A DNA stretch of 64,000 nucleotides, from NCBI GenBank assembly GCA_036785375.1, contig JAWMAR010000399.1, positions 1,984,001 to 2,048,000 on the forward strand, written 5' to 3'. Position numbers and translations under genes: made by a program. Shown here piece by piece: positions 22,925-48,195 of the stretch (position 1 is its first letter; every line of letters starts with the position of its first letter). The notes under the pieces are model-generated. The model made no database searches, was not told the DNA's origin, and was given only the letters and a program-made list of their open reading frames with translations. This DNA comes from Leucoraja ocellata (Eukaryota).

Positions 22925-23741
22925 AAGAGTGGAGACTTTGAAGCAGGCAGCGTCAGTACATGTTTTCAGGGACTGGTTAAAAATGTCTGTATAGACTGGT
23001 GCCAGCTGTATGACACAGAGCTTAAGAGTAGAGAGGGAAACATTGTCAGGTCCTGGAGATTTCCGGCTCTTTTGTCCCCTGAAAAGCCTCTCCACCTCCT
23101 CTATTTTTAGTGTTGATATTGGATAAGTGATGTTGTGCAGCACAGAGGGTGTGGGTGTGAAGTGGTGATTGGAGGGGGGTGGGTGTACAAGGTCCCTGTC
23201 TTTGGAGACTGAGGTCAGGCTGTGAGTGGGTGTGAAGTGTTGGTTCGGGTCGGAAATGGTCAAGTCTTTTCATACTGGAGTCTTGCCTTAAGTAGGTGTG
23301 AAGTGGAGAATGGGAAGGACAGGGTGCAGGGTCCATTCTTTGTAGACTGGGGTCTGGCTGTGTTGGTTGGGGAGGGGGGGAGGTGGTACCAAGGTTATGT
23401 TTCTGATTTTCAAAACTGCAGTAAAACTCATTCAGGTCGTTGGTCAACTGATGATTGTCCAAAGAGCGGGGGGCTTTCCTCTTGTAGCTGGTAATTTCTT
23501 GCAAGCCCTTCCAAATTGAAGAAGAGTCACTAGCTGAGAACTTGCTCCTCAACTTCTCAAAGTACTTTTCCTTGGCAGCTCTGATTCCTCTTCTCAGCTT
23601 ATACTTGGCCTGCCTGTAGAGGTCTGCATCCATGCTCATGAAGGCCTCCTCTTTAGACCGTTGGAGCAGTGTGAGTTCTGCAGTGAACCAGGGCTTGTTG
23701 TTGTTGAATCATGTCCGGGTCGTAGTTGGAATGCAACTGTT
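22925..23741 (-). mobile_element. Rex/Babar-type LINE paralogue, upstream half only
   Basis: ORFs 22835-23263 and 23046-23639 (KSPGPDNV, YRQAKYKLRRGI). Confidence 0.85.
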
Positions 23742-25051
23742 GAAAGGTTATTCTTTGTCCAAGATGCACCCAATAAAACAATGTTGATTTCATACAATGG
23801 TTTGAGAGAGTCCTGAATCCCAATCTGGGATATTGTGTGTAATTTTGCCTCTTGCTCAGGAACAGCTTTGATTTTACAGAGTGAAGTGAGGATTGACCAG
23901 ACTGCTACCTGAACTGGGGTGAACAGAATGAGGAGACATTCAGGAGGCTAGATGTTCCTTTAAAGTTTATAGAATGAGAGTTGACCTCATTGAATCACAT
24001 TAAAATCTTCGAGGGCAGGACAGGCTAGTTTTGTTGAGATTAATTGCCATGGACTTCAGACACTCAGAATGAGAAGTCGGTCCAAGTTAAGAATGATAAG
24101 AAATGTTCAGTCTGTGGGTATTAATTTAAAATTGTGATCTATAAATGTCCACATGTTATTGGATTCTCCTGATGTAGGTAAATTACATGAAAAATGTTGT
24201 TTACTTACAGGATCTTGTAGAGCAACTCTTAATTCTTCTCTTACTTTCATGCATGAAGTATATTATTTACGGTGACGACACATTAGGACCAATTCCCCAG
24301 ACATCCGCATATTCTGCCCAACCAAAATGAATAGAGTGGCCTCACTGTAAAACCAGCATTCTCCTCCCTTTGTCATTGTATCATCCTTATTGCCAATTCC
24401 TGTGTCACATAAAACAGATAATATCAGAGTGTGAATTACAACGTTTGTGGAGTGAAATGGTCTGAAAATCTATCCACTCAAGCTGTCAAGCGGTATATAT
24501 GAGTGCTTCTTCTGAACAACTGCAAGCAGTCAAGTCAGCCACTCTTCATCCTATTCTGCTTACGGCAGGGTCTACTCTGCAACTCCTTGGTCAGACCCCT
24601 CACTCCCTCACAGCATCTCACACAAACAAGGTGATTTCCACTCATATTAACTCTTCCTTTCATTCCCAAAACCAATTTAACGGCCCCCAGTCTACCCCAT
24701 TGCTCTGGGGAGGCAATGATCTACATCTCCAATTCACTTACGTATCTAAAAACCCAATGTTATGAACGTTCCATTCAGGTAGCCTACACTCCCAACCTCT
24801 TCGCCCACGCGCACTCACCTGTCCACCTATGTTTCTACTCTGTTCACCATTCCTACCTCTATCTCTATCTGTTTACATTTTCTATTTGTATCAGTATATT
24901 ACCCCCAACGCTTCTGAAAATGCAAATACACTGCAACCACGGTTTCTTCCACATTTTCCCGATGGACCTGAGGAAAGTGTTAGTTACTTGCTGAATTATT
25001 GTGATGACATTTTACACTCCACACTGACATGGTCAATTTTTTCATTTCTAG

Positions 25052-25081
25052 CATCGACAACAAGTCCGACTTCAACAACAG
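25052..25081 (+). CDS. Mucin-like micro-exon, 30 nt, xSTTSPTSTT
   Basis: catttctag|CATCGACAACAAGTCCGACTTCAACAACAG|gtatgg. Confidence 0.8.
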
Positions 25082-27895: not shown

Positions 27896-28526
27896 CACTG
27901 AGGGGGGAGCAGCGAGAGGATGTTGTAGAACTCCTGTCAGAGAACCCGGTGGATACTGGCGTCCTGACCTTTCTGCGAGGATTTTAAGCATTACCTGATC
28001 TCCGCCTTTTGACATTGTCTTCAATGCTTATTTTCTCCTTTCCCCAACATTTATCCTCTGCCCAATCATTATGTCATTCTTAAATACATGTAATTGGTGG
28101 GTTTTGAGATTGTGGATCATTAGTTGGGATCTTTCAAGAATCTCTAGAGTCAAGGGTGGATCCAGACGATTAGAAAATTGCAAATATTACTCCGCTGTTC
28201 AAGGAGGGAATGAAGCAGGAGTGGAAATTATCATGTGTAAAATACTCAAAAACCTCTGATCAGTCGAATGAAGCAACTGAAATATATTGAGGAGAAAGTG
28301 TTACACTGTAAATAATATCATCAATGGAAGACCATATCATTGGACATCCTGTGTGCCTTTCTACTGCAAAGCCAAACGTTGTGCCCATCACACTGGCATC
28401 CTCATTAAACCTATTGTTGGGTATGATGAACCTATTTCCTGCAGCGTCCAACTTCGGCATTTCCGTACAGATGGAAATCCAGATTTCACTCGTTTATCCT
28501 CCAACTTCTACTTATTTATATTACAG

Positions 28527-28574
28527 GCAAAATTACAGATGGATACTCATGGACACGACCATCATCAACAACAG
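28527..28574 (+). CDS. Spacer micro-exon, 48 nt, (G)KITDGYSWTRPSSTT
   Basis: tatattacag|GCAAAATT...TCAACAACAG|gtaatg; an in-frame alternative AG lies 12 nt inside; paralogue at 42821. Confidence 0.7.
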
Positions 28575-28705
28575 GTAATGTGGTCATTGTTATGACGTCA
28601 TTCCCATTCAGATTAATAAGGTCCTGAATGGATACATAACTAGTGGGTGGGAATGATGTTTGAATGGGTGATCAGGGTGTGATCATGACCAGCGACAATC
28701 TCCTC

Positions 28706-29200
28706 AACCTCACAAGGATGAGGTTTCTGACTACTTTGAAGCACATGATAAAATAGGCCATAGTCAGCATGGTTTTGTGAAAGGGATTTCTTGCCTGATG
28801 AACCCATTGGAATTCATTGAGGAAGTAAATAGCTGGATAGACAAAGTAGAGACAGAGGACGTGGTTTACCTGGATTTTCAGGCAGCCTTTGATAGTGTGG
28901 CACACGTGAGGCTGCTGAAGAAGATGAGAGCCCCTGGTATCAGAGGGAAGATAGTAACATGGATAGCAGGTTTGCTGGATGGCAGAAAGAAGAGTTGCAA
29001 TAAAGGGGGATTTATCTGGTTGGTTGTCAGGAACTAGTGTTCCTCAGAGATTGGTGCTTGGGCCGCTATCAAAGCCATCAATTCCATCATCTAAATCATT
29101 AATATGTAACGTGTAGCGTAGCGGTCCCAACACCAACCCCTGCGGAACACCACTAGTCACCGGCAGCCATCCAGAAAAAGCACCCTTTATTCCTTCTGCA
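28706..29200. mobile_element. Two CR1 RT fragments in opposite orientation
   Basis: Plus ORF 28777-29037 (VVYLDFQAAFD) abuts a minus ORF with VTSGVPQG...INDLDDG. Confidence 0.8.
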
Positions 29201-30381
29201 GGGGAGTAGTGGCGTTGGTGTGCATTCTTGGCCATTGCTTCGATGTGGCGGGTCCAGGACAAATTGCTAGTGATATTTCTTCCAAAGACCATGACGCTTT
29301 CAATCATCTCTACTTCGGCGCTATCAATGTGTGTGCACTGCTTCGTTTCCTGAGGTCGAGCACAATCTCCGAGCTATTAATGATCATAAATCCTACTCCA
29401 GCAATTATTTAATGTTTTTGGCCAGTCAAACTGACATTACCCATTGAAATGTAGACCATATGGAAGATAATTTAATTCTGGATCCTCTTGACATGATATA
29501 TCTCATCAAAGCAAAATTTCATGATTTAAGCTTTGGGGATTTCTTGAGAAAAGCAGGGTGACTATTTAGAATATTTGACATTAACAGCACAAGAGCTCAG
29601 TGGGTTCATTGAATTCTGTCCTCCTGTTCACTTCAGTAACATAAAATCAAGCCCTAGATCAATTCCTGTCCCACCATCTTCATCTGCTTCATTCAGTTAT
29701 TCATGTTGCTCTTTAAAGCTTTTAAAATATACTTTTTGTTCTCATCACGCAGTGAGAAACAATTTTTCTAATCTTGCGCACTTACTATTTTTTCAACCAA
29801 CCTCCTCCATCTCGCCCACCCTGTTTTCCGTCCAATTGTGTGGTCCCACCTGCTGTAAAGCGTAATATGGGACCACTTTTTTTCCAATATAGAATGCGAT
29901 ACAATACTTCAACAGCAATGGAAGAGCATTAAAATCAGGGAATGTGTGAAATGTAGATACTTCAGGGCATAACAACTGCTTTACTGCACATTATAATCAA
30001 TTCCTGTCACACCATCTTCATCTGCTTCATGCAATTATTCATGTTGCTGTTTAAAGCTTTTAAAAGATACTTTTTGTTCTCATCACGCAGTGAGACACAA
30101 TTTTCTAATCTTCCACACATATTATGTTTTCAACCAATCTCCCCATCTCGTCCACCCTCAGTATTCCTTCCAATTGTGTGGTCCCAACTGCTGTAAAGTG
30201 TAATATGGCCCCATTTTTTTTCCAATAAAGAATGGGAATATAACACTTCAACAGCAAGGGGAGAGCATTAAAATCAGGGAATGGGCGAAATGTAGATCCT
30301 TCAGGGCATAACAACTGCTTTACTCCACTCTCTAATGGCAGATTAGTTTCAAAATTACATCTTAAACTGTTTCCTCTCCAG

Positions 30382-30408
30382 AGTCAACGCCATTGTCACC
30401 GACCACAT
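30382..30408 (+). CDS. Candidate micro-exon, 27 nt, (E)STPLSPTT, ends in T
   Basis: cctctccag|AGTCAACGCCATTGTCACCGACCACAT|gtatgg. Confidence 0.45.
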
Positions 30409-30521
30409 GTATGGACATCAGCAGTTGAGATTGATGACTGGACAAATAGTTGATTAATTTATATGTAATGAGATTTATTCTACAATCTTTGCACTCATAT
30501 CTTCAATTATATCCCTTCCAG

Positions 30522-30551
30522 AGTCAACAACATCAACCACATCAACCACAG
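30522..30551 (+). CDS. Mucin-like micro-exon, 30 nt, (E)STTSTTSTT
   Basis: cccttccag|AGTCAACAACATCAACCACATCAACCACAG|gtatga. Confidence 0.8.
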
Positions 30552-31861
30552 GTATGACCATAACCCCATCTCTTCACCTCTGTTCCCATTATTCCAGGGG
30601 GAAAGTAAGTAAGTTTGTTTATTGGCCAAGTATTCACATACAAGGAATTTGCCTTGGTGCTCCGCCCACAAGTAACAACATGACATACAGTGAAAGTTAC
30701 GATTGACTCAGAAAACACTAAACATTAATAATAATAAAACATTTATGATAAAACACCATTGATCAAGCATGTGAACCAACAAAATACCAGATCAAAGGGA
30801 AGCTACAGACTTTGGCTGTTGAGTAGAGCAACTACTTGTGGATAAAATCTGTTCTTAAGTCTGGCTGTGACAGTTTTGACAGTCCGCAGTCGCTATCCAG
30901 AGGGAAGTGATTCAAAGAGTTTGTGGCCTGGGTGAGAGGGGTCAGAGTACAGTGTACAGTTGATCAATGGAGGGAAGGTTGCAGCCAATAACCTTCTCTG
31001 CTGATCGGCCGATTCACTGCAGCCTCCACGTGTCGTGCTTGGTGGCTGAGCTAAACCAGACCATGATGGAGTATGTGAGAAGGGACTTTACGATGGCCAT
31101 GTAGAATTGGACCATCATTACCTGTGGTAGATTGTGCTTCCTCAGCTGCCGTAGGAAGTACATCCTCTGTTGTGCCTTTTTGACTGTGGAGTCAAAGGTA
31201 GCCCCCACTTAAGGTCCTTGGAGATAATGGTTCCCAGGAACTTAAAAGACTCCACAGATGTAACTGTGGTGTTGTTGATGGTGAGTGGGGTGAGGGGAGG
31301 AGGAGCTCTCCTAAAGTCTACAATTAATTCCATTGCCTTAAAAGTATTGATCTCCAGGTTGTTGTGACGGCAGTAGGACGCCAGCTGTGACACTTCCTGT
31401 CTGTAGGCAGATTCCTCCCCATCCTGGATCTGTCCAATCAGGGTTGTGTCATCTGCAAACTTGACAGAGTTGTCTGTTGAGGTACAGTCGTTGGTGTAGG
31501 GAGAGTAGAGGAGAGGAGACAGTACGTAACCTTGCGGTGCTCCTATGCTGAGTGTTTGCGGGTCCGAGATGTGGTTTCCCAGCCTCACATGCTGCTTCCT
31601 GTCTGTCACGAAGCTGGTGATCCACCGACAGATGGGTTCAGGCACAGTCAACTCGGAAAGTTTGGAGTGTAGTAGCTCTTGCACAATGGTGTTGAATGCA
31701 GAGCTAAAATCAACAAAAAGGTCCCCTGGTGGTCTAGGTGCTGTAGGATGAAGTGCAGGCCCAGGTTGACTGCATTATCCACAGATCTATTGGCCCGATA
31801 TGTAAACTGCAGAGTGTCCAGCAGGGGGTTTGTGATATTTTTCAGCTTGGCCAGCACAAGG

Positions 31862-32218
31862 GCATGGACACGCTAGAGGCAGGAAACATGTTCCCGATGT
31901 TGGGGGAGTCCTGAACCAGGGGCCACAGTTTAAGAATAAGGAGTAATCCATTTAGAACTGAGATGAGGAAACATTTTTTCTCACCGAGAGTGGTGAGACT
32001 GTGTAATTCTCTGCCTCAGAGGGCAGTGGAGGCTGGTTCTCTGGATGCTTTGAAGAGAGAGCTAGATAGGGCTCTTAAAAATAGTAGAGGATATGGGGAG
32101 AAGGCAGGAACGGGGTACTGATTGGGGATGTTCAGCCATGATCACATTCAATGACGGTGCTGGCTTGAAGGGCCAAATGGCATATTCCTGCACCTAATGT
32201 CTACTGTCTATTGTCTAT
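31862..32218 (+). mobile_element. CR1 3' fragment nested in the Rex element
   Basis: CR1 C-terminus and 3'UTR (ggggagaaggcaggaacggggtactga) with (CTATTGT)n tail. Confidence 0.8.
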
Positions 32219-32743
32219 AAATATTTCTAGTACTTCATGAATACAGAGGTCAGTGTGATAGGCCTGTAGTCATTAAGACAAATAATCCATGCCTTTTTGG
32301 GTACAGGGACAAGAGTGGAGACTTTGAAGCAGGCAGGGTCAGTACATGTTTGCAGGGACTGGTTAAAAATGTCTGTATAGACAGGTGCCAGCTGTTTGAC
32401 ACAGAGCTTAAGAGTAGAGAGGGAAACATTGTCAGGTCCTGGAGATTTCCGACTCTTTTGTCCCCTGAAAAGCCTCTCCACCCCCTCTATTTTTAGTGTT
32501 GATATTGGATAAGTGATGTTGTGCAGCACAGTAGGTGATTGGGTGTGAAGTGGTGATTGGAGGGGGGTGGGTGTACAAGGTCCCAGTCTTTGGAGACTGA
32601 GGTCAGGCTGTGAGTGTGTGTGAAGTGTTGGTTGGGGTGGGAAACATAGAAACATAGAAACATAGAAATTAGGTGCAGGAGTAGGCCATTCGGCCCTTCG
32701 AGCCTGCACCGCCATTTAATATGATCATGGCTGATCATCCAAC

Positions 32744-35728
32744 TCAGTATCCCGTACCTGCCTTTTCTCCATACCCTCTGATCCCCTTGGACACAAGGGC
32801 CACATCTAACTCCCTCTTAAATATAGCCAATGAACTGGCCTCAACTACCCTCTGTGGCAGAGAGTTCCAGAGATTCACCACTCTCTGTGTGAAAAAAGTT
32901 CTCCTCATCTCGGTTTTAAAGGATTTCCCCCTTATCCTTAAGCTGTGACCCCTTGTCCTGGACTTCCCCAACATCGGAAACAATCTTCCTGCATCTAGCC
33001 TGTTCAACCCCTTAAGAATTTTGTAAGTTTTTATAAGATCCCCTCTCAATCTCCTAAACTCTAGAGAATATAAACCAAGTCTATCCAGTCTTTCTTCATA
33101 AGACAGTCCTGACATCCCAGGAATCAGTCTGGTGAACCTTCTCTGCACTCCCTCTATGGCAATAATGTCCTTCCTCAGATTTGGAGACCAAAACTGCACG
33201 CAATACTCCAGGTGTGGTCTCACCAAGACCCTATACAACTGCAGTAGAACCTCCCTGCTCCTATACTCAAATCCTCTTGCTATGAAAGCCAACATGCCAT
33301 TCGCTTTCTTTACTGCCTGCTGCACCTGCATGCCTACCTTCAATGACTGGTGTACCATGACACCCAGGTCTCGTTGCATCTCCCCCTTTCCCAATCGGCC
33401 ACCGTTTAGATAATAATCTGCTTTCCCGTTTTTGCCACCAAAATGGATAACCTCACATTTATCCACATTAAACTGCATCTGCCAAACATTTGCCCACTCA
33501 CCCAGCCTATCCAAGTCACCTTGCAGTCTCCTAGCATCCTCCTCACACCTAACACTGCCCCCCAGCTTAGTGTCATCCGCAAACTTGGAGATATTGCCTT
33601 CAATTCCCTCATCCAGATCATTAATATATATTGTAAATAGCTGGGGTCCCAGTACTGAGCCTTGCGGTACCCCACTAGTCACTGCCTGCCATTGTGAAAA
33701 GGACCCGTTTACTCCTACTCTTTGATTCCTGTTTGCCAGCCAGTTCTCTATCCACATCAATACTGAACCCCCAATGCCATGTGCTTTAAGTTTGTATACT
33801 AATCTCTTATGTGGGACCTTGTCGAAAGCCTTCTGGAAGTCCAGATACACCACATCCACTGGTTCTCCCCTATCCACGCTACTGGTTACATCCTCGAAAA
33901 ATTCTATAAGATTCGTCAGACATGATTTACCTTTCGTAAATCCATGCTGACTTTGTCCAATGATTTCACCACTTTCTAAATGTGCTGCTATCCCAACTTT
34001 AATAACTGACTCTAGCAGTTTCCCCACTACCGATGTTAGGCTAACTGGTCTGTAATTCCCCGTTTTCTCTCTCCCTCCCTTCTTAAAAAGTGGGGTTACG
34101 TTTGCTACCCGCCAATCCTCTGGAACTACTCCAGAATCTAAGGAGTTTTGAAAGATTATTACTAATGCATCCACTATTTCTGGAGCTACTTCCTTAAGTA
34201 CTCTGGGATGCAGCCTATCTGGCCCTGGGGATTTATCGGCCTTTAATCCATTCAATTTACCCAACACCACTTCCCGACTAACCTGGATTTCACTCAATTC
34301 CTCCACCTCCTTTGACCCGCGGGCCCCTGCTATTTCCGGCAGATCATTTATGTCTTCCTTAGTGAAGACGGAACCAAAGTAGTTATTCAATTGGTCCACC
34401 ATATCCTGGTTCCCCATGATCAACTCACCTGTTTCTGACTGCAAGGGACCTACATTTGTTTTAACTAATCTCTTTCTTTTCACATATCTATAAAAACTTT
34501 TGCAGTCAGATTTTATGTTCACTGCCAGTTTTCTTTCATAATCCATTTTTCCTTTTCTAATTAAGCCCTTCGTCCTCCTCTGCTGGTCTCTGAATTTCTC
34601 CCAGTCCTCCGGTATGCTGCTTTTTCTGGCTAGTTTGTACGCATCATCCTTTGCTTTGATACTATCCCTGATTTCCCTTGTTATCCATGGATGCACTACC
34701 TTGCCTGATTTATTCTTTTGCCAAACTGGGATGAACAATTTTTGTAGTTCATCCATGCAGTCTTTAAATGCCTTCCATTGCATATCCACCGTCAACCCTT
34801 TTAGAATTAATTGCCAGTCAATCTTGGCCAATTCACGTCTCATACCCTCAAAGTTACCTTTCTTTAAGTTCAAAACCATTGTTTCTGAATTAACAATGTC
34901 ACTCTCCATCCTAATGAAGAACTCAACCATATTATGGTCACTCTTGCCCAAGGGGCCACGCACAACAAGACTACTAACTAACCCTTCCTCATTACTCAAT
35001 ACCCAGTCTAAAATAGCCAGCTCTCTCGTTGGTTCCTCTACATGTTGGTTTAGATAACTATCCCGTATACATTCCAAGAAATCCTCTTCCTCAGCACCCC
35101 TGCCAGTTTGATTCACCCAATCTATATGTAGATTGAAGTCACCCATTATAACTGCTTTGCCTTTGTCGCAAGCATTTCTAATTTCCTGTTTGATGCCATC
35201 CCCAACTTCACTACTACTGTTAGGTGGCCTGTACACAACACCCACCAGCGTTTTCTGCCCCTTATTGTTTCGCAGCTCTACCCATACCGATTCCACATCC
35301 TCCAAACTAATGTCCTTCCTTTCCATTGCGTTAATCTCCTCTCTAACCAGCAACACTACCCCACCTCCTTTTCCTTTCTCTCTATCCCTCCTGAATATTG
35401 AATATCCCGGGATGTTCAGCTCCCAGCCTTGGTCACCCTGGAGCCATGTCTCCGTGATCCCAACTATATCATAATCATTAATGGCTATCTGCACGTTCAA
35501 CTCATCCACCTTATTACGAATACTCCTTGCATTGAGACACAAAGCCTTCAGGCTTGTTTTTACAACGCTCTTACCCCTTATACAATTATGTTGAAAAGTG
35601 GCCCTTTTTGATTTTTGCCCTGGTTTTGTCTGCCTGCCACTTTTACTTTTCACCTTGCTACCTATTGCTTCTACCTTCATTTTACACCCCCCTGCCCCTC
35701 TGCTCTTGTACCCATCCCCCTGCCACAT
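32744..35728 (-). CDS. CR1 ORF2: APE endonuclease + reverse transcriptase (994 aa from the ATG overlapping the ORF1 stop)
   Basis: NARSIRNK, ITETW, GDFN, SDH, YLDFQKAFD, GVPQGSVLGP and KFADD motifs; no stops. Confidence 0.93.
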   Translation of the reverse strand: MWQGDGYKSRGAGGCKMKVEAIGSKVKSKSGRQTKPGQKSKRATFQHNCIRGKSVVKTSLKALCLNARSIRNKVDELNVQIAINDYDIVGITETWLQGDQGWELNIPGYSIFRRDREKGKGGGVVLLVREEINAMERKDISLEDVESVWVELRNNKGQKTLVGVVYRPPNSSSEVGDGIKQEIRNACDKGKAVIMGDFNLHIDWVNQTGRGAEEEDFLECIRDSYLNQHVEEPTRELAILDWVLSNEEGLVSSLVVRGPLGKSDHNMVEFFIRMESDIVNSETMVLNLKKGNFEGMRRELAKIDWQLILKGLTVDMQWKAFKDCMDELQKLFIPVWQKNKSGKVVHPWITREIRDSIKAKDDAYKLARKSSIPEDWEKFRDQQRRTKGLIRKGKMDYERKLAVNIKSDCKSFYRYVKRKRLVKTNVGPLQSETGELIMGNQDMVDQLNNYFGSVFTKEDINDLPEIAGARGSKEVEELSEIQVSREVVLGKLNGLKADKSPGPDRLHPRVLKEVAPEIVDALVIIFQNSLDSGVVPEDWRVANVTPLFKKGGREKTGNYRPVSLTSVVGKLLESVIKVGIAAHLESGEIIGQSQHGFTKGKSCLTNLIEFFEDVTSSVDRGEPVDVVYLDFQKAFDKVPHKRLVYKLKAHGIGGSVLMWIENWLANRNQRVGVNGSFSQWQAVTSGVPQGSVLGPQLFTIYINDLDEGIEGNISKFADDTKLGGSVRCEEDARRLQGDLDRLGEWANVWQMQFNVDKCEVIHFGGKNGKADYYLNGGRLGKGEMQRDLGVMVHQSLKVGMQVQQAVKKANGMLAFIARGFEYRSREVLLQLYRVLVRPHLEYCVQFWSPNLRKDIIAIEGVQRRFTRLIPGMSGLSYEERLDRLGLYSLEFRRLRGDLIKTYKILKGLNRLDAGRLFPMLGKSRTRGHSLRIRGKSFKTEMRRTFFTQRVVNLWNSLPQRVVEASSLAIFKRELDVALVSKGIRGYGEKAGTGY

Positions 35729-36390
35729 TAGTTTAAATCCTCCCCGACAGCAGTAGCAAACACCCCCCCAAGGACATTGGTTCCATTCCAGTCCAGGTGC
35801 AGACCGTCCTGTTTGTACTGGTCCCACCTCCCCCAGAACTGGTTCCAATGCCCTAAAAATTTGAATCCCTCCACCTTGCACCATTTTTCAAGCCACGTAT
35901 TCATCTGCAATATCCTCCTATTTCTGCTCTGACTGGCCCGTGGTACTGGTAGTAATCCAGAGATTATTACCTTTGAGGTCCTACTTTTAAGTTTATCTCC
36001 TAGCTCCCTAAATTCATCCTTTAGGACCTCATCCCTTTTTTTACCTATATCGTTGGTGCCAATATGCACCACGACAACTGGCTGTTCACCCTCCCCCTCC
36101 AGAATGTTCTGCAGCCGTTCACTGACATCCCTGACCCTTGCACCAGGGAGGCAACATACCATCCTGGAGTCTCTTTTGCGGCCGCAGAAACGCCTATCTA
36201 TTCCCCTGACAATTGAATCCCCTATTACTATTGCCCTTCCACTCTTTTTCCCCCCCTCATGTGCCGCAGAGCCACCCATGGTGCCATGAACTTGGCTGCT
36301 GCTGCATTCCCCTGATGAGCAATCTCCCTCAACAGTTTCCAAAATGGTATACCTGTTTAGGAGGGAGATGACCGCAGGGGACTCCTGCAC
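35728..36390 (-). CDS. CR1 ORF1, SGNH/GDSL esterase-like domain
   Basis: IGDSIVRG, LPGARVRD, HIGTND and DGLH blocks. Confidence 0.9.
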   Translation of the reverse strand: MQESPAVISLLNRYTILETVEGDCSSGECSSSQVHGTMGGSAAHEGGKKSGRAIVIGDSIVRGIDRRFCGRKRDSRMVCCLPGARVRDVSERLQNILEGEGEQPVVVVHIGTNDIGKKRDEVLKDEFRELGDKLKSRTSKVIISGLLPVPRASQSRNRRILQMNTWLEKWCKVEGFKFLGHWNQFWGRWDQYKQDGLHLDWNGTNVLGGVFATAVGEDLN

Positions 36391-36687
36391 TACCTGCCTA
36401 CTGCTTTGCTGACTATTGGTCCAGTCTTTTCATACTGGAGTCTTGCCTTAAGTAGGTGTGAAGTGGTGAATGGGAAGGACAGGGTGCAGGGTCCATGCTC
36501 ATGAAGGCCTCCTCTTTAGACCATTGGAGCAGTGTGAGTTCTGCAGTGAACCAGGGCTTGTTGTTGTTGAATCATGTCCGGGTCGTAGTTGGAATGCAAC
36601 TGTTGAAAGGTTATTCTTTGTCCAAGATGCACCCAATAAAACAATGTTGATTTCATTCAATGGTTTGCAAGAGTCCTGAATCCCAAT

Positions 36688-37893
36688 TCAGATTCAGATT
36701 CAGATTCAATTTTAATTGTCATTGTCAGTGTACAGTACAGAGACAACGAAATGCATTTAGCATCTCCTTTGAAGAGCGACATAGCAAACGATTTTGAATT
36801 AAAAAAAAAAAATAATAAGTGTCCGGGGGGGGGGGGGGGGGGTGATTGGCAGTCACCGAGGTACGTTGTTTAGTAGAGTGACAGCGGCCGGAAAGAAGCT
36901 GTTCCTCGACCAGCTGGTTCGGCAACGGAGAGACCTGTAGCGCCTCCTGGATGGTAGGAGGGTAAACAGTCCATGGTTGGGGTGAGAGCAGTCCTTGGCG
37001 ATGCTGAGCGCCCTCCGCAGACAGCGCTTGCTTTGGACAGACTCAATGGAGGGGAGCGTGGAACCGGTGATGCGTTGGGCAATTTTCACCACCCTCTGCA
37101 ATGCCTTCCGGTCGGAGACAGAGCAGTTGCCATACCATACTGTGATGCAGTTGGTAAGGATGCTCTCGATGGTGCAGCGGTAGAAGTTCACCAGGATCTG
37201 AGGAGACAGATGGACCTTCTTCAGTCTTCTCAGGAAGAAGAGACGCTGATGAGCCTTCTTGATCAGAGTAGAGGTATTGTGGGTCCAAGAGAGGTCATCG
37301 GAGATGTTGACTCCCAGGAACCTGAAGCTAGAAACACGTTCCACCTCCGTCCCGTTAATGTGGATGGGGGTGTGCGTGCCGCCTCTGGACTTCCTGAAGT
37401 CTACAATGAGCTCCTTGGTCTTCTTGGAGTTAAGGGCCAGGTTGTTGTCAGCGCACCATGCTGCTAAGTGCTGGACCTCCTCCCTGTAGGCCAGCTCATC
37501 GTTGTTGCTGATGAGGCCAATCACCGTTGTATCATCTGCATACTTGATGATGGTGTTAGTACCATGTACAGGTGTGCAGTCATAGGTGAAGAGGGAGTAG
37601 AGGAGGGGGCTCAGCACACAGCCCTGAGGAACGCCGGTGTTCAGGGTGAGGGTTGAAGAGGTGTGCTTGTCTAACCTCACAGACTGGGGTCTGTTGGTTA
37701 GAAAGTCCAGTATCCAGTTGCAGAGGGAGGGGTCGATGCCCAGGTTACCGAGTTTGGTGATCAGTTTTGATGGAATAATGGTGTTGAATGCTGAGCTGTA
37801 ATCGATGAACAGCATTCTTACATAAGTGTCTCTGTTGTCAAGGTGGGAGAGGGCGGAGTGAAGTGCCGTTGAGATGGCATCCTCCGTACTCCT
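36688..37893 (-). mobile_element. Young 5'-truncated Rex/Babar-type LINE of a second family
   Basis: Open ORF 36853-37815 ([22 protein letters not shown]); (TCTGAA)n tail; empty site at about 23825. Confidence 0.92.
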
Positions 37894-39120
37894 GGAATAT
37901 TGTGTGTAATTATGCCTCTTGCTCAGGAACAGATTTGATTTTACAGAGTGAACTGAAGATTGACCAGACTGCTACCTGAACTGGGGGGAACAGAATGAGG
38001 AGACATTCAGGAGGCTAGATGTTCCTTTAAAGTTTAGAGAATGAGAGTTGACCTCATTGAATCACATTAAAATCTTCGAGGGCAGGACAGGCTAGTTTTG
38101 TTGAGATTAATTGCCATGGACTTCAGACACTCAGAATGAGAAGTTGGTCCAAGTTATGAATGATAAGAAATGTTCAGTCCGTGGGTATTAATTTAAAATT
38201 GTGATCTATAAATGTCCACATGTTATTGGATTCTCCTGATGTAGGTAAATTACATGAAAAATGTTGTTTACATACAGGATCTTGTAGAGCAACTCTTAAT
38301 TCTCCTCTTACTATTCATGCATGAAGTATATTATTTACGGAGTCCACACATTAGGACCAATTCCTCAGACATCCGCATATTCTGCCCAACCAAAATGAAT
38401 AGAGTGTCCTCACTGTTAAACCAGCATTCTCCTCCCTTTGTCATTGTATCATCCTTATTGCCAATTCCTGTGTCACCTAAAACAGATAATGCCAGAGTGT
38501 GAATTACAACTTTTGTGGAGTGAAATGGTCTGAAAATCTATCCACTCAAGCTGTCATGCGGTATATATGAGTGCTTCCCCTGACCAACAGCAAGCAGTCA
38601 AGTCAGCCACTCTTCCTCCTATTCTGCTTACGGCAGGGTCTACTCTGCAACTCCTTGGTCGGCCCCCTCACTCCCTCATAGCACCTCACACAAACAAGGT
38701 GATTTCCACTCATATTAACTATTCCTTTCATTCCCAAAACCAATTTAACGGCCCCCAGTCTACCCCATTGCTATGGGAAGGCAATGATCTACATCTCCAA
38801 TTCCACTTACGTAACTAAAAACCCAATGTTATGAACGTTGCATTCAGGTAGCCTACACTCCCAACCTCTTCTCCCACGCACACTCACCTGTCCACCTATG
38901 TTTCTACTCTGTTCACCATTCCTACCTCTATCTCTATCTGTTTACATTTTCTATTTGTATCAGTATATTACCCCCAACGCTTCTGAAAATGCAAATACAC
39001 TGCAACCACGGTTTCTTCCACATTTTCCCGATGGACCTGAGGAAAGGGGTAGTTACTTGCTGAATTATTGTGATGACATTTTACACTCCACACTGACATG
39101 GTCAATTTTTTCATTTCTAG

Positions 39121-39150
39121 CATCGACAACAAGTCCGACTTCAACAACAG
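39121..39150 (+). CDS. Mucin-like micro-exon, 30 nt, (A)STTSPTSTT
   Basis: catttctag|CATCGACAACAAGTCCGACTTCAACAACAG|gtatgg. Confidence 0.8.
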
Positions 39151-39423
39151 GTATGGATTCAGCTGGGCCACAGCAGGTTGTTATCATTCATGTACACGGA
39201 CCAACATACTGATCTACAAAGCCACTGCAATGCTTGTTTTAAGATATCCATTCCAGTCTGAGCTTCCAACTGCTCCGTTAAGATCCCAATCTGCCCATAT
39301 CAAGAATGGTGTTGAATCTCTGCTTGCTACCTTTCCCATGTGTTTATTTAACGTTAAAATAAGTCTCCTAGAAATAGTTGATGGAATTACACAGCATTCT
39401 CCAGAACTAAACTTTATTTACAG

Positions 39424-39456
39424 CATCAACATCAACAACAACATCAACCTCAACAG
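39424..39456 (+). CDS. Mucin-like micro-exon, 33 nt, (A)STSTTTSTST
   Basis: tttatttacag|CATCAACATCAACAACAACATCAACCTCAACAG|gtacca. Confidence 0.78.
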
Positions 39457-40623
39457 GTACCAAGTTAGCAATGAAAATTAATACAATTTGCATGAACTTC
39501 ACAAGTCGCTGCATATTTCAATCCCCATATAACCCAATCGTATGAGCAAGGACACTCACGGACATGAGTCGATGGTTTAATTTAGTTTATTAATTTAATT
39601 TATTATTGTCATGTGTAGCAGAGTGCAATGAAAAGGTGTTTGTTGCAAGCTATCCAGTCAGCGAAAAGACTATGCATGATTACAATCAAGCTGTCCAGAA
39701 TGTACAGATGTTGGATGAAGGGTATAACATTTAGTGAAAGATAAATTCCAACAAAGTGTGATTAAAGATAGTTCTACTGTCTCCAATCATGTAAATGGAA
39801 GGTCAAGACTGCTTTCTAGCAGTGTCCCAGATACTGTCCCTGATTCTAGACATATAATTTCCAAACTTTTGTACCTCTTGACTGATGGGAGAGGAGTAAC
39901 CAGGGTGAGACAGGTCCTTGATTTTGCTGGTGGTCTTGCCGAAGCAGTGTGAAGGGTAAATGGGAGACAATGGAAGGGAGGTTGGTTTGTGTGATGGTCA
40001 CTGTTATTTCCACAATTCTCTGCAATTTCATGCGGTTTTGGATGGAACTGTTCACAAACCATGCTGTGAGGGATCCCAATGATATGCTTTCTAAGGCACA
40101 TACGTAATGGTTGGTGAGGATTGTTCGTGACATTCCAAACTTCCAAAGCCTTCTAAGGATGTGTGGCATTGGTGTGCATTCTTGACCATTGCTTCGATGT
40201 GGCTGGTCCAGGACAAATTGCGAGTACTATTTCTTCCTAAGACCGTGAAGCTTTCAATCATCTCTTCTTTGGCACTATCAATGTGTGTGCACTGCTTCGT
40301 TTCCTGAAGTCGATCACAATCTCTGAACCGAAGACAATACTAATAATCAGAAAACTTACTCCAGCAATTATGTAATGTTTTTGGACAGTCAAACTGACAT
40401 TACCCATTGAAATGTAGACCAGCTGGATGATAATTTAATTCCGGATCCTCTTGACATGAGATACCTCATCAAAGCACAATTTCATGATTTAAGCTTTGGA
40501 GATTTTTCGAGAAAAGCAGGGTGACTATTTAGTATTTGACATTAACAGCACAAGATCTCAGTGGGTTCATTGAATTCTGTCCCCCTGTTCGCTTCAGGAT
40601 GACACTTGTCATGTGGACTATAA

Positions 40624-42639
40624 TAGGCCTTTTTCACGGGGCGACTTGACGCAAGATGTAGCCAGAGTGAAGTGGTCGTGGTCTAGCACGATATCACACG
40701 ATATAACGGGGGGGTAGACAAAGAGTTCCCACGGTAATCGTCATTTCTGTTATTTGTGCGAGAGACTTGTCCATCTCCCGAGCTTTCCCGTTAAATCTTG
40801 AATGACATTGTAACTGTCAAGTGTAATTAATCATCATGTGGCACAAATGATGTCACTTTTTTTTTCACACACTATAAATATCCTCCCTTGGTTGAATTGG
40901 TCTATACACACACAAAGCAGAGTTTTACTGTGTATGTGGGAGACACAGATGGAGTGAGCACAGTTACTGAGGCAGAGTCTCTCAGCCTGTGTGAGAGGGA
41001 GGGAGCGAGAGAGAGAGAGGCACGCACAAGGTGGATGTGAAATCTCACCTGCCTATTTCAGTGACAGACACCCGCCGCCAGTAAATGAAGCCACCCCCAT
41101 CTGTCTCCCCCTCCTCTCCCTCGACTCCCCCACCTTTCCCTCCCAACTCCAGTCCCGTCCCGACTCCCTGGGAAACTGAAGGGAGCAACAATTAATTGCT
41201 GCCTGCCCGCTGAGTTAAAGAGTTCCCACGGTAAGACGATGTTAGTTGCGCCCAAGTTTAAATTTCCAACGTGTGTTTCAGAGTAAATCAAAAACTGTCT
41301 GAATCAGCAAGTTAGACACAAAATGCTGGAGTAACTCAGCGGGCCAAGCAGCATCTCTGGAGAAAAGGAATAGATTCCATTTTTGGTCGGGACCCTTCTT
41401 CGGGATGATTGTAGGGGGTAACTGGAAGCAAGAAAAGACCGGGACAAATCAGGGCCAACAACAGATGACCTCAGCAGGGTATTTTGAAGAAGGGTCGCGA
41501 CCCGAAATGTCGCCTAACCCTTTCCTCCAGAGATGCTGCCTGACCCACTGAATCGCTCCAGCACTTTATGTCTATATTTGGTTCCCTGATAGGCCAATTG
41601 TTGGCTAGGGATAGTGTGATCCCAATAGGGAACCAGCGTTGCAAACCTTGGACTGGTTAACCGACAATTACTGCATGGGGGAGGGGGGGCAGGAGGGGGT
41701 GGGCGTGGGAGAGAGAGAGAGTTTAAGTTACCTAAAATTAAATAATTCAATGTTCATAGTGAACACGGACACAAAATGTTGGTGTAACTCAGCAGGTAAG
41801 TCAGATCTGGGAAGAAAAACATAAAAAGCTGGAGTAAGTCAGCGTGTCAGGCAGCATCTCTGGAGAAAAAGTATAGGTGGCAAATCGAATCGGAACCCTT
41901 CTTCAGACATCCTAATCGGAATTGAGTCTGAAGATGTGTCTCGTCCCGAAACATCACCTATTTTTCTCCAGAGATGCTGCTGGACTCGCTGAGTTACTCC
42001 AGCTTTTTGTGTCTTTCTTCGTTTTAAACCAGCATGTGCAGTTCACTCCTTTACACGGGTCTCTGGAGAACATTGATTGGTAGCATTCCGGACCCTGCTT
42101 CGGAAAGGCATCGATCGCTGATTGGCGAGGACTCCGAGCTGTATCTCTCAAAGAAGTACATGTGCAAAATTTCTCACGGACCATAAAAATGCGGGACCTT
42201 TCAGTAAAGTCCCTTTTAAAGATTATAGTTATTTTCTTGAAACTCTAACATAACTCATGAATAAGTTGATGTCCATATGCGGATGCAAATCTTTATTTTT
42301 TAAATTCCACAGAAGACAATTTTTACTCACCTTCTGTCCCCTCTGTCCAGCTTCCGGGTTCACCGTTCGCAGGTGTTCCCACGGTTCACGCAAGAGTCAG
42401 TACGGATATCGCACTCGCCACTACGTGCATATAATGTTGCAATGTTCAACCACAAGTGTACAAGTCACTCTTGGAGAAATTCAAGCTTGTTTGAATTTTC
42501 TCCCGAGTCACCAAGTTACACGAGTACCTGCCGTTAGCGCCACGGTGGTCCACGAATGCCGTACGGTTATCGTAAGAGGTTCCCACGATGTTCAACTCTG
42601 GTTAACTCTTGCGTCAAGTCACCCCGTGAAAAAGGGGTT
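40624..42639. mobile_element. Non-autonomous PIF/Harbinger-like DNA transposon (about 2 kb) with nested SINE/Penelope-type pieces
   Basis: About 45-bp imperfect TIRs (cctttttcacgggg(c/t)gacttgacgcaaga...ccagagt); TAA on both flanks. Confidence 0.8.
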
Positions 42640-42820
42640 TAACAGAGAACTATGTTTACGTACATTATCTGTTGTGCTGATGCCAGTCAGGATTTCATTG
42701 TTTCGTTTCAGGACATATGACAATAAAACATTCCTGAAACTTCAGCTTCGGCATTTCCGCATGGTTAGAAACCCAGATTACACTCGTTTTTCCTCCAACT
42801 TCTCCTTATTTCTATTCCAG

Positions 42821-42868
42821 GCAAAATGACAACCTATGTATATGATCATCAAACATCAACGCCAGAAG
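42821..42868 (+). CDS. Spacer micro-exon, 48 nt, (G)KMTTYVYDHQTSTPE
   Basis: ttctattccag|GCAAAATG...CCAGAAG|gtaatg. Confidence 0.72.
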
Positions 42869-44114
42869 GTAATGAAACCATTATTATCATGTGATTCCCA
42901 TTCAGATTAATAAGGACCTGAATGGAAACAGAACCAGTTGGAAGTGACCATTGAATGGGTGATTAGGGTGTGATCATGACCTGGTAAAATCTCCTCTACC
43001 TCATGTTAAATCCATACCATTTTCAGGCAACTAACAGGTTATTGCCTTTGATTATGGGATGAGCAATCCTTTGTATGTCTAATCTAATCAAATATAACAG
43101 CATCCACCCATGTAACTCTGGAATGCTGCCAAGATTCATTTTTTAGCACTGTCGCCATTTATTTTAATTCCCAACTATGTCCTGTAGATTGGTTTATGCA
43201 TGAGAACCAATCATAGTAGAATAGGATCACTAACCCCATCCTACTGTACGATTTATACTAACACCCACTTCCTACACTGGTCAGTCTTGGAAACGGTCAT
43301 GATGTTCTAACAACTAACAACCTGCTGTACTGCTTTAATACGAATACTGATTAAAGATGATCTTGGACTTCAGATTGTATTCTTTGGCTATATACATGTC
43401 CAAACATCTGTCTATCACTGCTTTGAATGAACGCATTGACTAAGCCTTTATAGCCAGATGTGTTCTCACCATGCTCCTCAATAACTACAATCAAACGGCT
43501 TGGGTCTGATCAAATATTCTCGTAGTAAACGTGAACTTACCATCTGCCTTTAGCCACAACGACCTTCTGGAGGAATTCAGCAGCACAGACAAGATCTGAG
43601 GAGGGAATTGAACTGTGAACGTTTCACATTGGGAACCTTCTTGATTTCCTGTTATATACCGAAGTGCACGACTCCACATTTACCCACCACCCATTGTGTG
43701 AAAACCTTGTGCCTCAGAATTGTAGTAAATCTTTCCCCTTTCACCGTAAATCTATGTCCTCTGGTTCTTGATCCCCCTATTCTGGGTAAAAGAGTCTGTG
43801 CATCTCCTCTACCTATCCCCTCGTGATCTTTTACACCTTTATCAGATCACCCCTATTCTTCCTTGCTCCAAGGATTACAGTCCTGGCCTGCCTAACCTCT
43901 ACTATAGCTCAGGCCCACAGGTCCTGGCACCATCCTCGTTAATATTCTCAGCACCGTTTCCAGCTTAACACATCGTTCCAATGGCAGGGAAAGATTTTAC
44001 AATAATGGCATGAAGTTTCCAATTCAATATCCTGAGAACTGGTTCTATGAACTGAGGGAAAATTGAATGATATTCTACTCCGCCTATTCACACAAACTAA
44101 TGTCTTCCTTCCAG

Positions 44115-44141
44115 CACCAACATCGACAACAACTTCAACAA
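44115..44141 (+). CDS. Mucin-like micro-exon, 27 nt, (A)PTSTTTST
   Basis: ctaat branch-like motif; cttccttccag|CACCAACATCGACAACAACTTCAACAA|gtaagt. Confidence 0.8.
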
Positions 44142-44764
44142 GTAAGTGATGAACAACACATTAACAATTACACTTCGCATTAACTTGGGAACAACTATTC
44201 CCAGGATGTTAACTAGTTTCTTTTGATGAAGTGGAGGAGAGTGTTTTAATACTTTCAGTCAAAACCTTAATATAATTAGACATTTTATCTTAACCTTTCT
44301 GAGTATATTGTAAACTTTGGAAATTATGAAATGAGAGGCAAAAATTCTGCTCTGTCATAATTTTACTGAAATAAAATTTGGGATCTACACAACTGAGACA
44401 TTGAGATTATCATGGCAGTGAATTACACATTTTGTCGACAGTCACAACTTCTTCCTCAGGGTGGAAATGTCCAACATGAGAGAGCACAGCTATCATGTGA
44501 GTGGGGGAGTTTAATGAAGATGTCCAGGGGAAATGTTTTAATGCAGATAGCGGGGGCTGGACGTCGGAACACATTGCCAGGAGTAGTGGTGGAGGCATAC
44601 ACTATAGTGCCGTTTAAGAGGCTTTTTGATTGGCACATTGAAGTACAGGGAAGAGAGGGATTGAATTGCCAATCAGTAAAACAATTGATTGGTTGCAGCA
44701 AGTGAACTTCAGGTCAGGTCAGATGCAGGAACATTAAAAAGCCCGTCCGTGGACAGATCTATAA

Positions 44765-45660
44765 AATAAGAAAAAACCTTTTCACCCAGAGAGTTGTGAA
44801 TTTGTGGAATTCCCTGCCACAGAGGGCAGCGGAGGCCAAATCACTGCATGGATTTAAGAGAGAGTGAGATAAAGCTCTAGGGGCTAGTAGAATCAAGGGA
44901 AATGGGGAGATGGCAGGCACGGGTTATTGATTGGGGACGATCAGCCATGATCACACTGAATGGTGGTGCTGGTTTGAAGGGCCGAATGGCCTTCTCCTGC
45001 ACCTATTTTTTCTATGGTTCTAGAGGAGCATATTAAACCTTGAAATTAACCTAGCCAGGTGACAGGTGTAACAGCCGTAGAGTATTTTGATCACAACTCC
45101 ATGAGTTTTGATGTGGACACATGGAACTACAGATGCCGGATAAGTTTTAAGTTTGTTGTGAAGAGTGATAAGTCTGGACCTTGCGGGAAGGTACTAAATT
45201 GGGGGAATTGTAGATTACAGCAACATTTAGCAGGAGCTAGGGTGAGTAAAGTGAGCCGCTGTCATTGGGCAAGTACTCATCTGACCGATAGGAGACTTAT
45301 ACTGGCAAGTTGATCAGTGTTTAAGACCAACATGTTTCAACAAGGAGGTAGGATAAGGATGGCAATGGAAGGGAACCTTGTCTGATCACAGAGGTTGTAA
45401 CAGCTCAAAAGAAAAATGAACTCTATGTAAGGATTAGAAAGAAGAAATCAGACAAGTACTTTGAGGAATATAAAGCGATCAGGAAATAAATCACGCTGGC
45501 AATTGGTGAACAAAAATCCCAAGGCTTTGTATACATCCATGAAAATCCATAGGGTAACAAGGAAACAGTAGGACTGATCATGGATAAAGAAGGGAATTTG
45601 TGCTTGTAGTCAGAGGATGTATACAAGGTAGTAAACGAGTACTTTGCATCAATGGTGTTT
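44765..45660 (+). mobile_element. CR1 3' end followed by decayed CR1 ORF2 interior
   Basis: cagagagttgtgaatttgtggaattc...cagccatgatcac...tttctatg tail; copy at about 59480-60380. Confidence 0.75.
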
Positions 45661-46075
45661 TCATGGTCCCTTATGTTTTTAAGCAGGAGCACAAAAATGT
45701 TTCTTGAATATAAATTAACTTTACAGAAAACTATCAATGTTCTGTTGATACATATTTTAGTACAAATATACCAATGATTTTCTGAAATATTCATATTCAT
45801 CTCAAATTTAAATACGTGGACAGAGTGATGTAGATTTTGGGAAAGCAGTGGGAAAGTGATCTTGGAAAAGAAAGGTGCATTCAACAATTTTCACAATATA
45901 ATTCTGATCTTTTGTTATCAAGTTCAAGATTAAATGGAGGACCAAAACGGCCCAATATTTTGCAATGTTACGTAGGTGTAGCAATCATGAGAAAAGATAG
46001 ACCAGTAGACAGATGGACAGGATCGAGATGAAATTTTACATTACACACTGACATGGTCAATTTTCTCATTTCCAG

Positions 46076-46105
46076 CATCGACAACAACTCCGACTTCAAC
46101 AACAG
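46076..46105 (+). CDS. Mucin-like micro-exon, 30 nt, xSTTTPTSTT
   Basis: catttccag|CATCGACAACAACTCCGACTTCAACAACAG|gtatgg. Confidence 0.8.
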
Positions 46106-46526
46106 GTATGGTATCAACTGGGCCACAGCAGGTTGTTATCATTCATGTACACGGACCAACAGACTGATCTTCTACAAAGCCACTGCGACGCTTTATTTAG
46201 ACCTACATTCCAGTGTGAAGAACTACGTTCCTTATTCCTAATACATCAACCCAGAATCTTCATCAGAATATTCATAGACATACCGAATCTCCTCAATCTT
46301 TGAGGAAAGAAGAGGCATTGATGGATATTGTTGAGATTACATCAATGTACTGGGCCCAGAACAGATCTTCAGAGATATGCATGCCCAGTAACTTGAAAGA
46401 GTTGACTCTCTCCATCGTCATTGCAGAAGGTAGCACCAGTGAAGGGACAAATACTATGTTGATTTTAGTGTTGTCAGATTTATTCTACAATCCCCGAACT
46501 CACATCTTCAATTGCATCACTTGCAG

Positions 46527-46553
46527 AGTCAGTAACATCATCATCAACCACAG
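46527..46553 (+). CDS. Mucin-like micro-exon, 27 nt, (E)SVTSSSTT
   Basis: cacttgcag|AGTCAGTAACATCATCATCAACCACAG|gtatga. Confidence 0.75.
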
Positions 46554-46819
46554 GTATGATCACAGCCCCATCTCAAAAGTCTGCTCCCATTATCCCAGGA
46601 ACATCAATCTTAAATTAATTCTGCTGATTTTCAATTCATCTCAATGCAATTTAATTATATCTTCAACAGCAGCATCTGCTGCAACTATTCAAGAAGGCTT
46701 TACAAAATAATTCCATGATGTTTACAATTCAATATCCTGAGAACTGGTTCTGAGAACTGGGAGATGATGGAAAGATATTCCAGTCTGCCTATTCACACAA
46801 ACTAATGTGTTTCTTCCAG

Positions 46820-46849
46820 CACCAACATCGACCACAACTTCAACAACAA
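46820..46849 (+). CDS. Mucin-like micro-exon, 30 nt, (A)PTSTTTSTT
   Basis: tttcttccag|CACCAACATCGACCACAACTTCAACAACAA|gtaagt. Confidence 0.8.
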
Positions 46850-48165
46850 GTAAGTAATGAACAACATGTTAACAATTACACAATGCATTAACCTGGGAAC
46901 AACTATTCCCAGGACGTGAACTTGTTACACTTGATGAGGTGAAGGAGAGTATTTTAATATTTTCAGACATGGAGTTCATCATGGAAGTAAATTCAGGAAT
47001 TTGTGTACATTCAGATTATTTTATTATTCTCAGGGTGGAAATGTCTAACACTAGCTCACATAGCTATCAGATGAGTGTGAGATTTTAATGAAGATGGGTT
47101 GGGCAAATGTTTTGATGTAGATAGTGGGGTGGGAGGAGGGCTATAGCACATTGCATGGGTAAACCTGATCTACTCATTGAAGACAGAGGGTTGCAGTGCA
47201 ATGGTATTATTATTGCAGGAGGTCTTTGACGAATGGAATTCTGAGTGATCCGTTGGAGAAAATTGTGTGTTTGACCTGTTCTTTGCCTCCCTCCCACCAT
47301 TCCCCACTCCACTCTGTCTCTCCCTCGACTGTTTGCCCGACAGGGATTAACGATCTGCTATAGCAACAACAAAGTGCAGGTTCTGGTTTTCCAAATAAGG
47401 AAAGCCACAATCCGAAATGTTGCTAATCCATGTTCTCCACAGATGAGGCCTGACACGCTAAGTTACTCCAGCATTTGTGTCTTTTTTTAAATGTCCTGCG
47501 GACTGCCTTTCTAGAGTTTCCAGAAGTGCTGCTTTTACTTCAGTGAATGAAACACTGGAAACCACCCGTAAACAATGAGAAGACGTACGATAGGCATCAC
47601 AATCTGGCCAAGACAGCAGGCTGTCTGACAATCGTAGTCCTTAAACGTCTTTCCAGTGGCATCACAATTAAGATTTCCCATTGGAAGATGATGGATAGAA
47701 TATACGTATATATCCTGCATACAAATGAATTCCTTGCCTCTCAGCAACAATCACCCATCAAATTTATGAACATGTGTGAAACTATACTACAGATATTTCT
47801 TAAAAAAGTAGGGAGAATATGATGATGCATTTGTACTCTGAGGATTCCAGACAGGGCTGTCAATGGTTATGCTAGAAAGCAGGGGCACAAAAATGTTTCC
47901 TGAACATAAAAAGAGTTTGCAGAAAACAATCAATATTCTGTTAAAACCTATCTGGGGAAAAGAGAGGCAGATTCAACTATTTTCTCAAAATAATTCTAAT
48001 CTTTTGTTTTCATGTTACATATTAAATGGAGATCCAAAACTATGAAATGTTTTGCAATATTACATATGTGTAGCAACCATGAGGAAAGATAGACGGGTGG
48101 ACAGATGGACAGGATTGAGATGAAATTTGACACTCCACTGACATGGTCATTTGTCTCATTTCCAG

Positions 48166-48195
48166 CATCGACAACGACCCCAACTTCAACAACAG
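48166..48195 (+). CDS. Mucin-like micro-exon, 30 nt, xSTTTPTSTT
   Basis: catttccag|CATCGACAACGACCCCAACTTCAACAACAG|gtatgg. Confidence 0.8.

Follow-up and report, generated by a model that had tools for sequence, protein, structure and literature searches.

Two paralogous spacer micro-exons of a skate MUC6-like mucin gene differ more than their introns, with the excess lying in a 20-nt core

How can two short paralogous exons come to differ more than the introns that enclose them? The question is raised by a 64,000-nt stretch of the skate Leucoraja ocellata (contig JAWMAR010000399.1, here C399, positions 1984001-2048000; below, the window), in which two 48-nt exons, A and B, are parts of a MUC6-like gel-forming mucin gene and interrupt its proline-, threonine- and serine-rich (PTS) region. 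Contig C11 carries the locus a second time. A first-pass annotation of the window had proposed that the two exons were driven apart by diversifying selection acting on exposed spacers, for example at a host-pathogen or protease interface. The excess of exon change on which that proposal rested is found here as well, and is concentrated in the middle of the exon. The exons and the flanks with which they can be aligned are as follows.

28527..28574, + strand: spacer exon A, 48 nt, phase 1, reading (G)KITDGYSWTRPSSTT; eight copies in the assembly, six of them with N instead of D
42821..42868, + strand: spacer exon B, 48 nt, phase 1, reading (G)KMTTYVYDHQTSTPE; six copies in the assembly, one with a synonymous variant
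28436..28526, + strand: intron flank upstream of A, aligning to its counterpart at B with 75 matches, 15 mismatches and 2 gaps
28575..28712, + strand: intron flank downstream of A, aligning to its counterpart at B with 112 matches, 23 mismatches and 2 gaps
42731..43003, + strand: alignable B unit, flanks plus exon, from pairwise alignment

The coordinates, length, AG/GT ends, phase and open frames of both exons are those that the annotation had given. The units A (28436-28712) and B (42731-43003) are 78.2% identical over 280 columns (E 1e-56), which bears out its statement that the introns can be aligned and, by alignment, makes the exons real paralogues; downstream, their homology stops at what the depth at the equivalent place of locus L086 indicates to be a high-copy repeat. 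All 14 copies of A and B keep AG/GT, 48 nt and a frame free of stops, and the acceptor scores of the two spacers (5.6 and 9.0) are among the strongest in the array of exons to which they belong. A search with the shared flank motif gave 14 perfect matches plus three on unrelated contigs, and a DNA search recovered the same 14 spacer loci; no third spacer type with the same flanks was found in this way. The idea that a PTS unit gave rise to the spacer unit was considered and rejected, the flank scores being 17-20 against 81-96 for A with B; the resemblance of exon A to PTS exons is limited to its last 18 nt (15/18).

Aligned without gaps, the exons mismatch at 25 of 48 bases, with 4 of 16 residues in common as the annotation had counted, whereas fixed flanks of 60 + 60 nt mismatch at 20 of 120 bases with no gaps (Fisher P=6e-6). 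If one codon gap is allowed per exon, 17 of 45 bases mismatch, still above the flanks (P=0.0045). Free nucleotide gaps lower the exon to 22-29% substitutions with 3-4 gaps, and the difference from the flanks then reaches P<0.05 in none of 16 settings when substitutions alone are counted and in 5 of 16 when gaps are added. The gapped alignment that the annotation had named as a refuting test is thus ambiguous at face value. Because free gaps over-fit an exon of 48 nt (P ranging from 0.017 to 0.60), such alignments were set aside as a test, and alignment scores were simulated instead with the same over-fitting allowed. Among all simulated pairs the observed exon score has P<=0.002 at the flank rate and P=0.015-0.017 at 20% divergence, rising to 0.07-0.10 at a true divergence of 25% and to about 0.3 at 30%. 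PTS-exon paralogues on C11 serve as an internal control: at flank divergences of 0.14-0.22 their exons diverge by 0.09-0.12 on average, with an ungapped maximum of 0.23 (453 non-independent pairs). The excess of exon over intron change between A and B is real and an outlier in this gene, provided that the flank rate is a fair clock.

The excess is not spread along the exon, a feature that the first-pass annotation had not noted. From the 5' end there is one mismatch in 11 nt, then 18 in the 20 nt from 12 to 31, and then six in 17; if the 25 mismatches were scattered at random, such a 20-nt window would arise with P=1.4e-4. Outside this core the exon (7/28) is not above the flanks (20/120; P=0.22).

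28538..28557, + strand: core of exon A (20 nt), mismatched to B at 18/20 positions and with no homology detectable
42832..42851, + strand: 20-nt core of exon B, the counterpart of the A core
42715..42731, + strand: intron segment like exon B nt 20-36, 14/17 bases (post hoc, P=0.034), a possible local template

The two cores align with one another no better than shuffled sequences do (P=0.29-0.37), and because a mismatch of 90% lies beyond the 75% at which point substitution saturates, their comparison suggests that the core lost its register or was replaced. Where a replacement might have come from is hinted at by the introns. Each core fits the intron of its own unit better than that of its paralogue (cross-controls, P=0.45-0.80), and in unit A positions 28466-28475 exactly match exon A nt 8-17 in this copy (10/10, P=0.003; 9/9, P=0.025 for the commoner allele). 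Exon A also has an internal repeat of period 10, and exon B one of period 7. On these short matches a local template switch would be a lead only.

Among recent copies the exons have hardly changed. The eight copies of A and six of B hold one variable exon site each (D/N in A, synonymous in B), so that within the assembly 2 of 96 exon sites vary against 21 of 800 flank sites, with no excess of change in the exons. For comparison with two other organisms, here organism B and organism C, and for RNA, four of 24 available runs were mapped to locus L086, with exon A at 219-266 and exon B at 9710-9757, and the positions of differences given below come from the 40 listed of 961. In organism B exon A is spanned by one contig (1-483), which has 10 gap letters and differs at 25 positions; 13 differences are listed within 1-334, none of them inside the exon, and 0/48 against 13/286 has a probability of 0.11 at the flank rate and, at three times that rate, of 0.0009, provided that the listing is complete there. 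A single contig of organism C covers exon A, with 22 differences in 406 nt, six of them among those listed. Exon B is covered in organism B by a contig with 14 differences in 372 nt, whose two gap letters correspond to an insertion that lies outside the exon, and in organism C by a contig with seven differences in 208 nt and no gap, so that at most seven can fall in the exon. Since both exon types occur in both organisms on contigs that are only 3-5% different, against a corrected divergence of about 19% between the A and B flanks, the split between A and B is, by this comparison, older than the splits between the species. The annotation's expectation of rapid exon change is thus not borne out among the recent copies, and nothing among the listed differences between species points to it; as far as these contigs go, the cross-organism pattern argues against an ongoing arms race and is silent on an early episode.

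The contigs of the other organisms also differ in depth over L086. In organism B the contig over exon B (9629-10000) is about 4.5-fold deeper than that over exon A (1-483; 1294 vs 289), and in organism C the ratio is 23-fold (102 vs 4.4), against six copies of B to eight of A in the present assembly. This hints that B is amplified in other skates, with the caution that contig depth does not equal copy number.

Our preferred account, which we hold to be probably right if by no means securely so, is an old duplication and a block rewriting of a tolerant core, followed by stasis and passive multiplication. A and B would be two kinds of non-PTS spacer cassette within a PTS region built of micro-exons, and would descend from one ancestral spacer unit that was duplicated long ago, as the flank divergence implies. 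One or two events of several bases each would then have rewritten the middle 20 nt, be it through slippage, through insertions and deletions that offset one another, or through a brief switch to a template in the unit's own intron. The ends of the exon would have drifted at about the rate of the intron. The length and frame of the spacer would have survived because a cassette exon must remain a multiple of three. Both versions would since have been nearly static and have been multiplied by unequal crossing-over of blocks of 40-60 kb. In the protein they would form Lys/Tyr/Trp/His interruptions in a Thr/Ser bottle-brush, most likely less glycosylated hinges or points accessible to cleavage. Of all this, the anatomy, the clustering, the numbers of copies and their low variation are observed, whereas the block mechanism, the splicing and the role in the protein are inferences.

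Several observations weigh against this account. With the best codon gap, nonsynonymous sites exceed the flanks (14/31 vs 20/120, P=0.0014), an excess that synonymous sites do not share (3/11, P=0.30) and that also follows if the core is non-homologous. Divergence in the 3' third of the exon, beyond the core, amounts to 35% (P=0.07). The matches to a possible template are short and post hoc, and the strongest of them depends on a minority allele (2/8 copies) that is probably recent. Among the organism B differences around exon A, 12 of the 25 are unlocated. Finally, selection may also be what fixes a block change, and the preferred account can coexist with either of the first two alternatives considered next.

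The first of these limits the annotation's idea to an old episode: positive selection after the duplication would have produced two different binding, cleavage or cross-linking sites, and stasis would have followed. We regard this as possible but doubtful. In all five alignments the proportion of nonsynonymous differences (pN, 0.45-0.60) exceeds that of synonymous ones (pS, 0.28-0.42), and such an episode would fit the excess over the flanks at nonsynonymous sites, the outlying position of the A/B pair among micro-exon paralogues, the splice sites and frame kept in all 14 copies, and the presence of both types in two other organisms. However, the three contrasts of pN and pS that were tested are not significant (P=0.21-0.44), and pN>pS is undefined if the core is not homologous. 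The clustering of the mismatches, the low variation of the exons among recent copies and the absence of listed exon A differences in organism B, which would be improbable at three times the intron rate if the listing is complete there, also speak against it. Of the annotation's claim, the excess stood, and diversifying selection is not shown. In addition, the description of the spacers as non-glycosylated was overstated, with Ser or Thr at 7 of the 16 residues of A and at 5 in B.

The second alternative questions the clock. If the flanks have been slowed, by splicing elements that surround a micro-exon or by gene conversion that spared the exon, then the baseline of 17% underestimates the age of the duplication and the exon may be near neutral; at a true divergence of 25-30% it is unremarkable (P=0.07-0.31). 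The flank is indeed partly doubtful as a clock. Weak homology between A and B extends 80 nt further upstream with about 40% mismatch (z≈2.1-2.2, P=0.02-0.05), the downstream flanks of PTS micro-exons diverge by 0.13 near the exon vs 0.24 further out (20/22 non-independent pairs), and conversion in introns but not in domain exons has a described precedent in CEACAM32 (PMC7042247). Against this, the upstream PTS flanks have no gradient of conservation near the exon (11/26 pairs), the A/B flank differences are not clustered as gene conversion would leave them (P=0.28-0.39), and flank divergence remains near 17% out to +138. Slowed flanks would also leave the confinement of the excess to 20 nt unexplained, and we consider them an unlikely sole cause.

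The last alternative, that splicing no longer includes one or both exons and that they are decaying like other dead units of the array, would fit the 51 flank-matched sites of 205 that fall short of the exon thresholds, at least six of them without the AG, and is highly improbable given the intact 14 copies, the strong acceptors and the rarity with which a dead pair diverged by 52% would retain length and frame. Two RNA runs (tissue unknown, 5-6% of each read) gave no reads on either exon (B had no depth, and the reads near A were all intronic and upstream) and no joints at the exons among those listed; at that sampling they are uninformative and are not taken as evidence.

The array in which the spacers lie is the more notable feature of the locus; the divergence that had been flagged is a real signal but is not shown to be adaptive. 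A splice-site scan of C11 gives 154 phase-1 exons of 21-48 nt over 357 kb, comprising 145 PTS exons, five copies of A and four of B; this count is a lower bound, and because the scan selects for lengths of 3n and for Ser/Thr/Pro content, these properties are not independent evidence. Thr, Ser or Pro occupy 1186 of the 1266 whole codons of the 145 non-spacer exons, as in a central PTS domain; in place of the canonical single large exon of variable-number tandem repeats (VNTR) there are at least 154 micro-exons. In the window 19 exons are called on the + strand and none on the reverse-strand control.

1046..25081, + strand: six 30-nt PTS micro-exons upstream of A, starting at 1046, 8449, 9516, 17134, 18701 and 25052 (splice-site scan)
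30522-30551 and 39121-39150, + strand: two 30-nt PTS micro-exons between A and B (splice-site scan)
44115..63498, + strand: nine PTS micro-exons of 27-30 nt downstream of B, starting at 44115, 46076, 46527, 46820, 48166, 48474, 56216, 60774 and 63469 (splice-site scan)

Throughout the array every B has an A before it, at a distance of two called PTS exons. Lys and Trp are confined to the spacer exons; in their 1266 codons the PTS exons have no Lys, no Trp, three Tyr and four Phe. Because the spacers are the sole exons of the array that bear Lys and Trp, their composition makes them candidate hinges, cleavage points or sites of tyrosine modification. A search of a protein collection for orthologous spacer peptides was made for B and not for A, and none of its three candidates held (0/3; in-frame intron padding). 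The PTS exons are uninformative as to purifying selection (pN/pS 0.81, P=0.31).

A census by flanks alone finds the 205 sites mentioned above; of the 51 that fail the thresholds, some look intact with weak donors. Decayed micro-exon copies without the acceptor AG are seen on C11, for example at 3790493, 3639599, 3625593, 3579233, 3563922 and 3526965, and many copies have a weakened donor, indicating birth and death of cassettes in the array. Between equivalent micro-exons the two array copies differ by 90.6 kb (C399:1806889-2054079, 247 kb, vs C11:3855762-3517983, 338 kb), and C399 has three A and two B where C11 has five A and four B; the length difference is either a cassette-level polymorphism between haplotypes or an assembly collapse. 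A candidate exon of 27 nt at 48897-48923 of the window also has strong splice scores and does not read as PTS; it may be another type of spacer or a site that arose by chance.

The assignment of the host gene comes from the exons 5' of the array, single ones of which match the Pfam domains VWD, TIL and C8. Searches by tblastn with an Amblyraja mucin-6-like protein and with marmot mucin-6 are colinear across loci L045-L037 and outline three N-terminal VWD-C8-TIL units. One upstream exon is 99% identical to a sequence of Leucoraja erinacea and 96% to one of Amblyraja radiata, 'mucin-6-like' (2/5 matches), and the choice of MUC6 is a ranking of best hits only (50% identity to marmot mucin-6, 42% to fish mucin-5AC-like). 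No tblastn match to VWD, C8 or TIL, such as a fourth unit after the PTS region would give, was found in the array or in the downstream loci L016-L035 and L051-L085; the sole matches there lie in L019 and concern a part of P0002, the public mucin-6-like model of Amblyraja, that is not VWD. The terminal exon at C11:3468444 weakly resembles the cystine-knot end of the marmot mucin-6 C-terminus (pairwise E=0.003) and has no Pfam match; a first exon of the knot was looked for and not found. The called micro-exons contain no Cys, in an array not scanned for larger CysD exons. The mucin is followed by a gene that carries a DENN domain and may be MADD.

Three further observations concern this neighbourhood. 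At L049:6460-6562 (C399:1676460), on the same strand and about 40 kb upstream of the first VWD matches, there is a cystine-knot-like exon (Pfam Cys_knot E=0.0016, below the cut-off), at which a second, tandem mucin gene may end. An exon of 61 nt that bears a Cys-Cys motif (L019:3535-3595, C11:3483595), placed after the PTS array and before the terminal exon, suggests extra cysteine-rich sequence preceding the knot. Because residues 145-196 of P0002, at the start of the model, match two further, unrelated places in L019, that start probably includes transposon-derived sequence.

Both public skate mucin-6-like models that were retrieved end 5' of the PTS region, and have thus missed the roughly 150 micro-exons of this MUC6-type gene. 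Such a layout would let the length of the mucin and the number of its exposed spacers vary by exon skipping or block duplication, not by VNTR slippage. A bolder picture, which we think rather unlikely, is of a MUC6-type mucin made of more than 150 in-frame cassettes with two functional modules, a Lys/Tyr/Trp and a Lys/Tyr/His spacer, which selection drove apart to serve as alternative sites for cleavage, cross-linking or a ligand and which are tuned in number and ratio by block duplication among haplotypes and species and by exon skipping among tissues. More practically, the two unique spacer peptides offer handles for primers, antibodies and mass spectrometry in an otherwise pure Thr/Ser repeat molecule. 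The claim of selection is a modest and unsettled case beside this micro-exon context, which is the more useful result; the lesson is that an exon of 48 nt can become more divergent than its intron through one block event.

Among known systems, the case of CEACAM32, which escaped concerted evolution, is alike in that paralogous introns resemble one another more than the exons they enclose. It is described for whole Ig-domain exons in separate genes with detected conversion tracts (PMC7042247), whereas the skate signal is a 20-nt patch inside one gene in which no conversion tract was detected. The micro-exon genes (MEGs) of schistosomes share very small symmetrical exons, a secreted surface protein and a structure suited to splice variation; they are platyhelminth genes, for some of which ratios of nonsynonymous to synonymous rates (dN/dS) above 1 are described between species (PMC4350168). 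The skate gene has no significant dN/dS excess and its spacers look static between species. By its domains it is a vertebrate VWD mucin and not a MEG, so that MEGs are an analogy only.

The architecture of Muc6 and its presence in a chondrichthyan are described in PMC4948705, and the skate gene is like MUC6 and the ovomucin beta-subunit as outlined there, in having three VWD-C8-TIL units, then a PTS region, no fourth VWD unit and possibly, from the weak resemblance noted above, a cystine-knot-like end. It is unlike them in its neighbours, which are the same-strand cystine-knot-like exon upstream and the DENN gene downstream rather than a head-to-head Muc2, and in its PTS region, whose 357 kb hold at least 154 exons of 21-48 nt where one large PTS/VNTR exon is described as the rule for canonical mucins (PMC13345508, PMC1552070). 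No report of a micro-exon PTS region in Muc6 or in elasmobranch mucins was found in the open-access literature; Xenopus FIM-C.1 is called polymorphic via alternative splicing (PMC7177656). The closest described layout is that of the PTS domain of chicken Muc13, with one repeat unit per exon and a length that alternative splicing could vary (PMC1552070). Muc13, however, is described as a transmembrane SEA mucin with nearly identical exons, whereas the skate gene encodes a secreted VWD mucin; its exons fall into several families, two non-PTS spacers are interspersed among them, and there are duplications of a higher order, of 40-60 kb.

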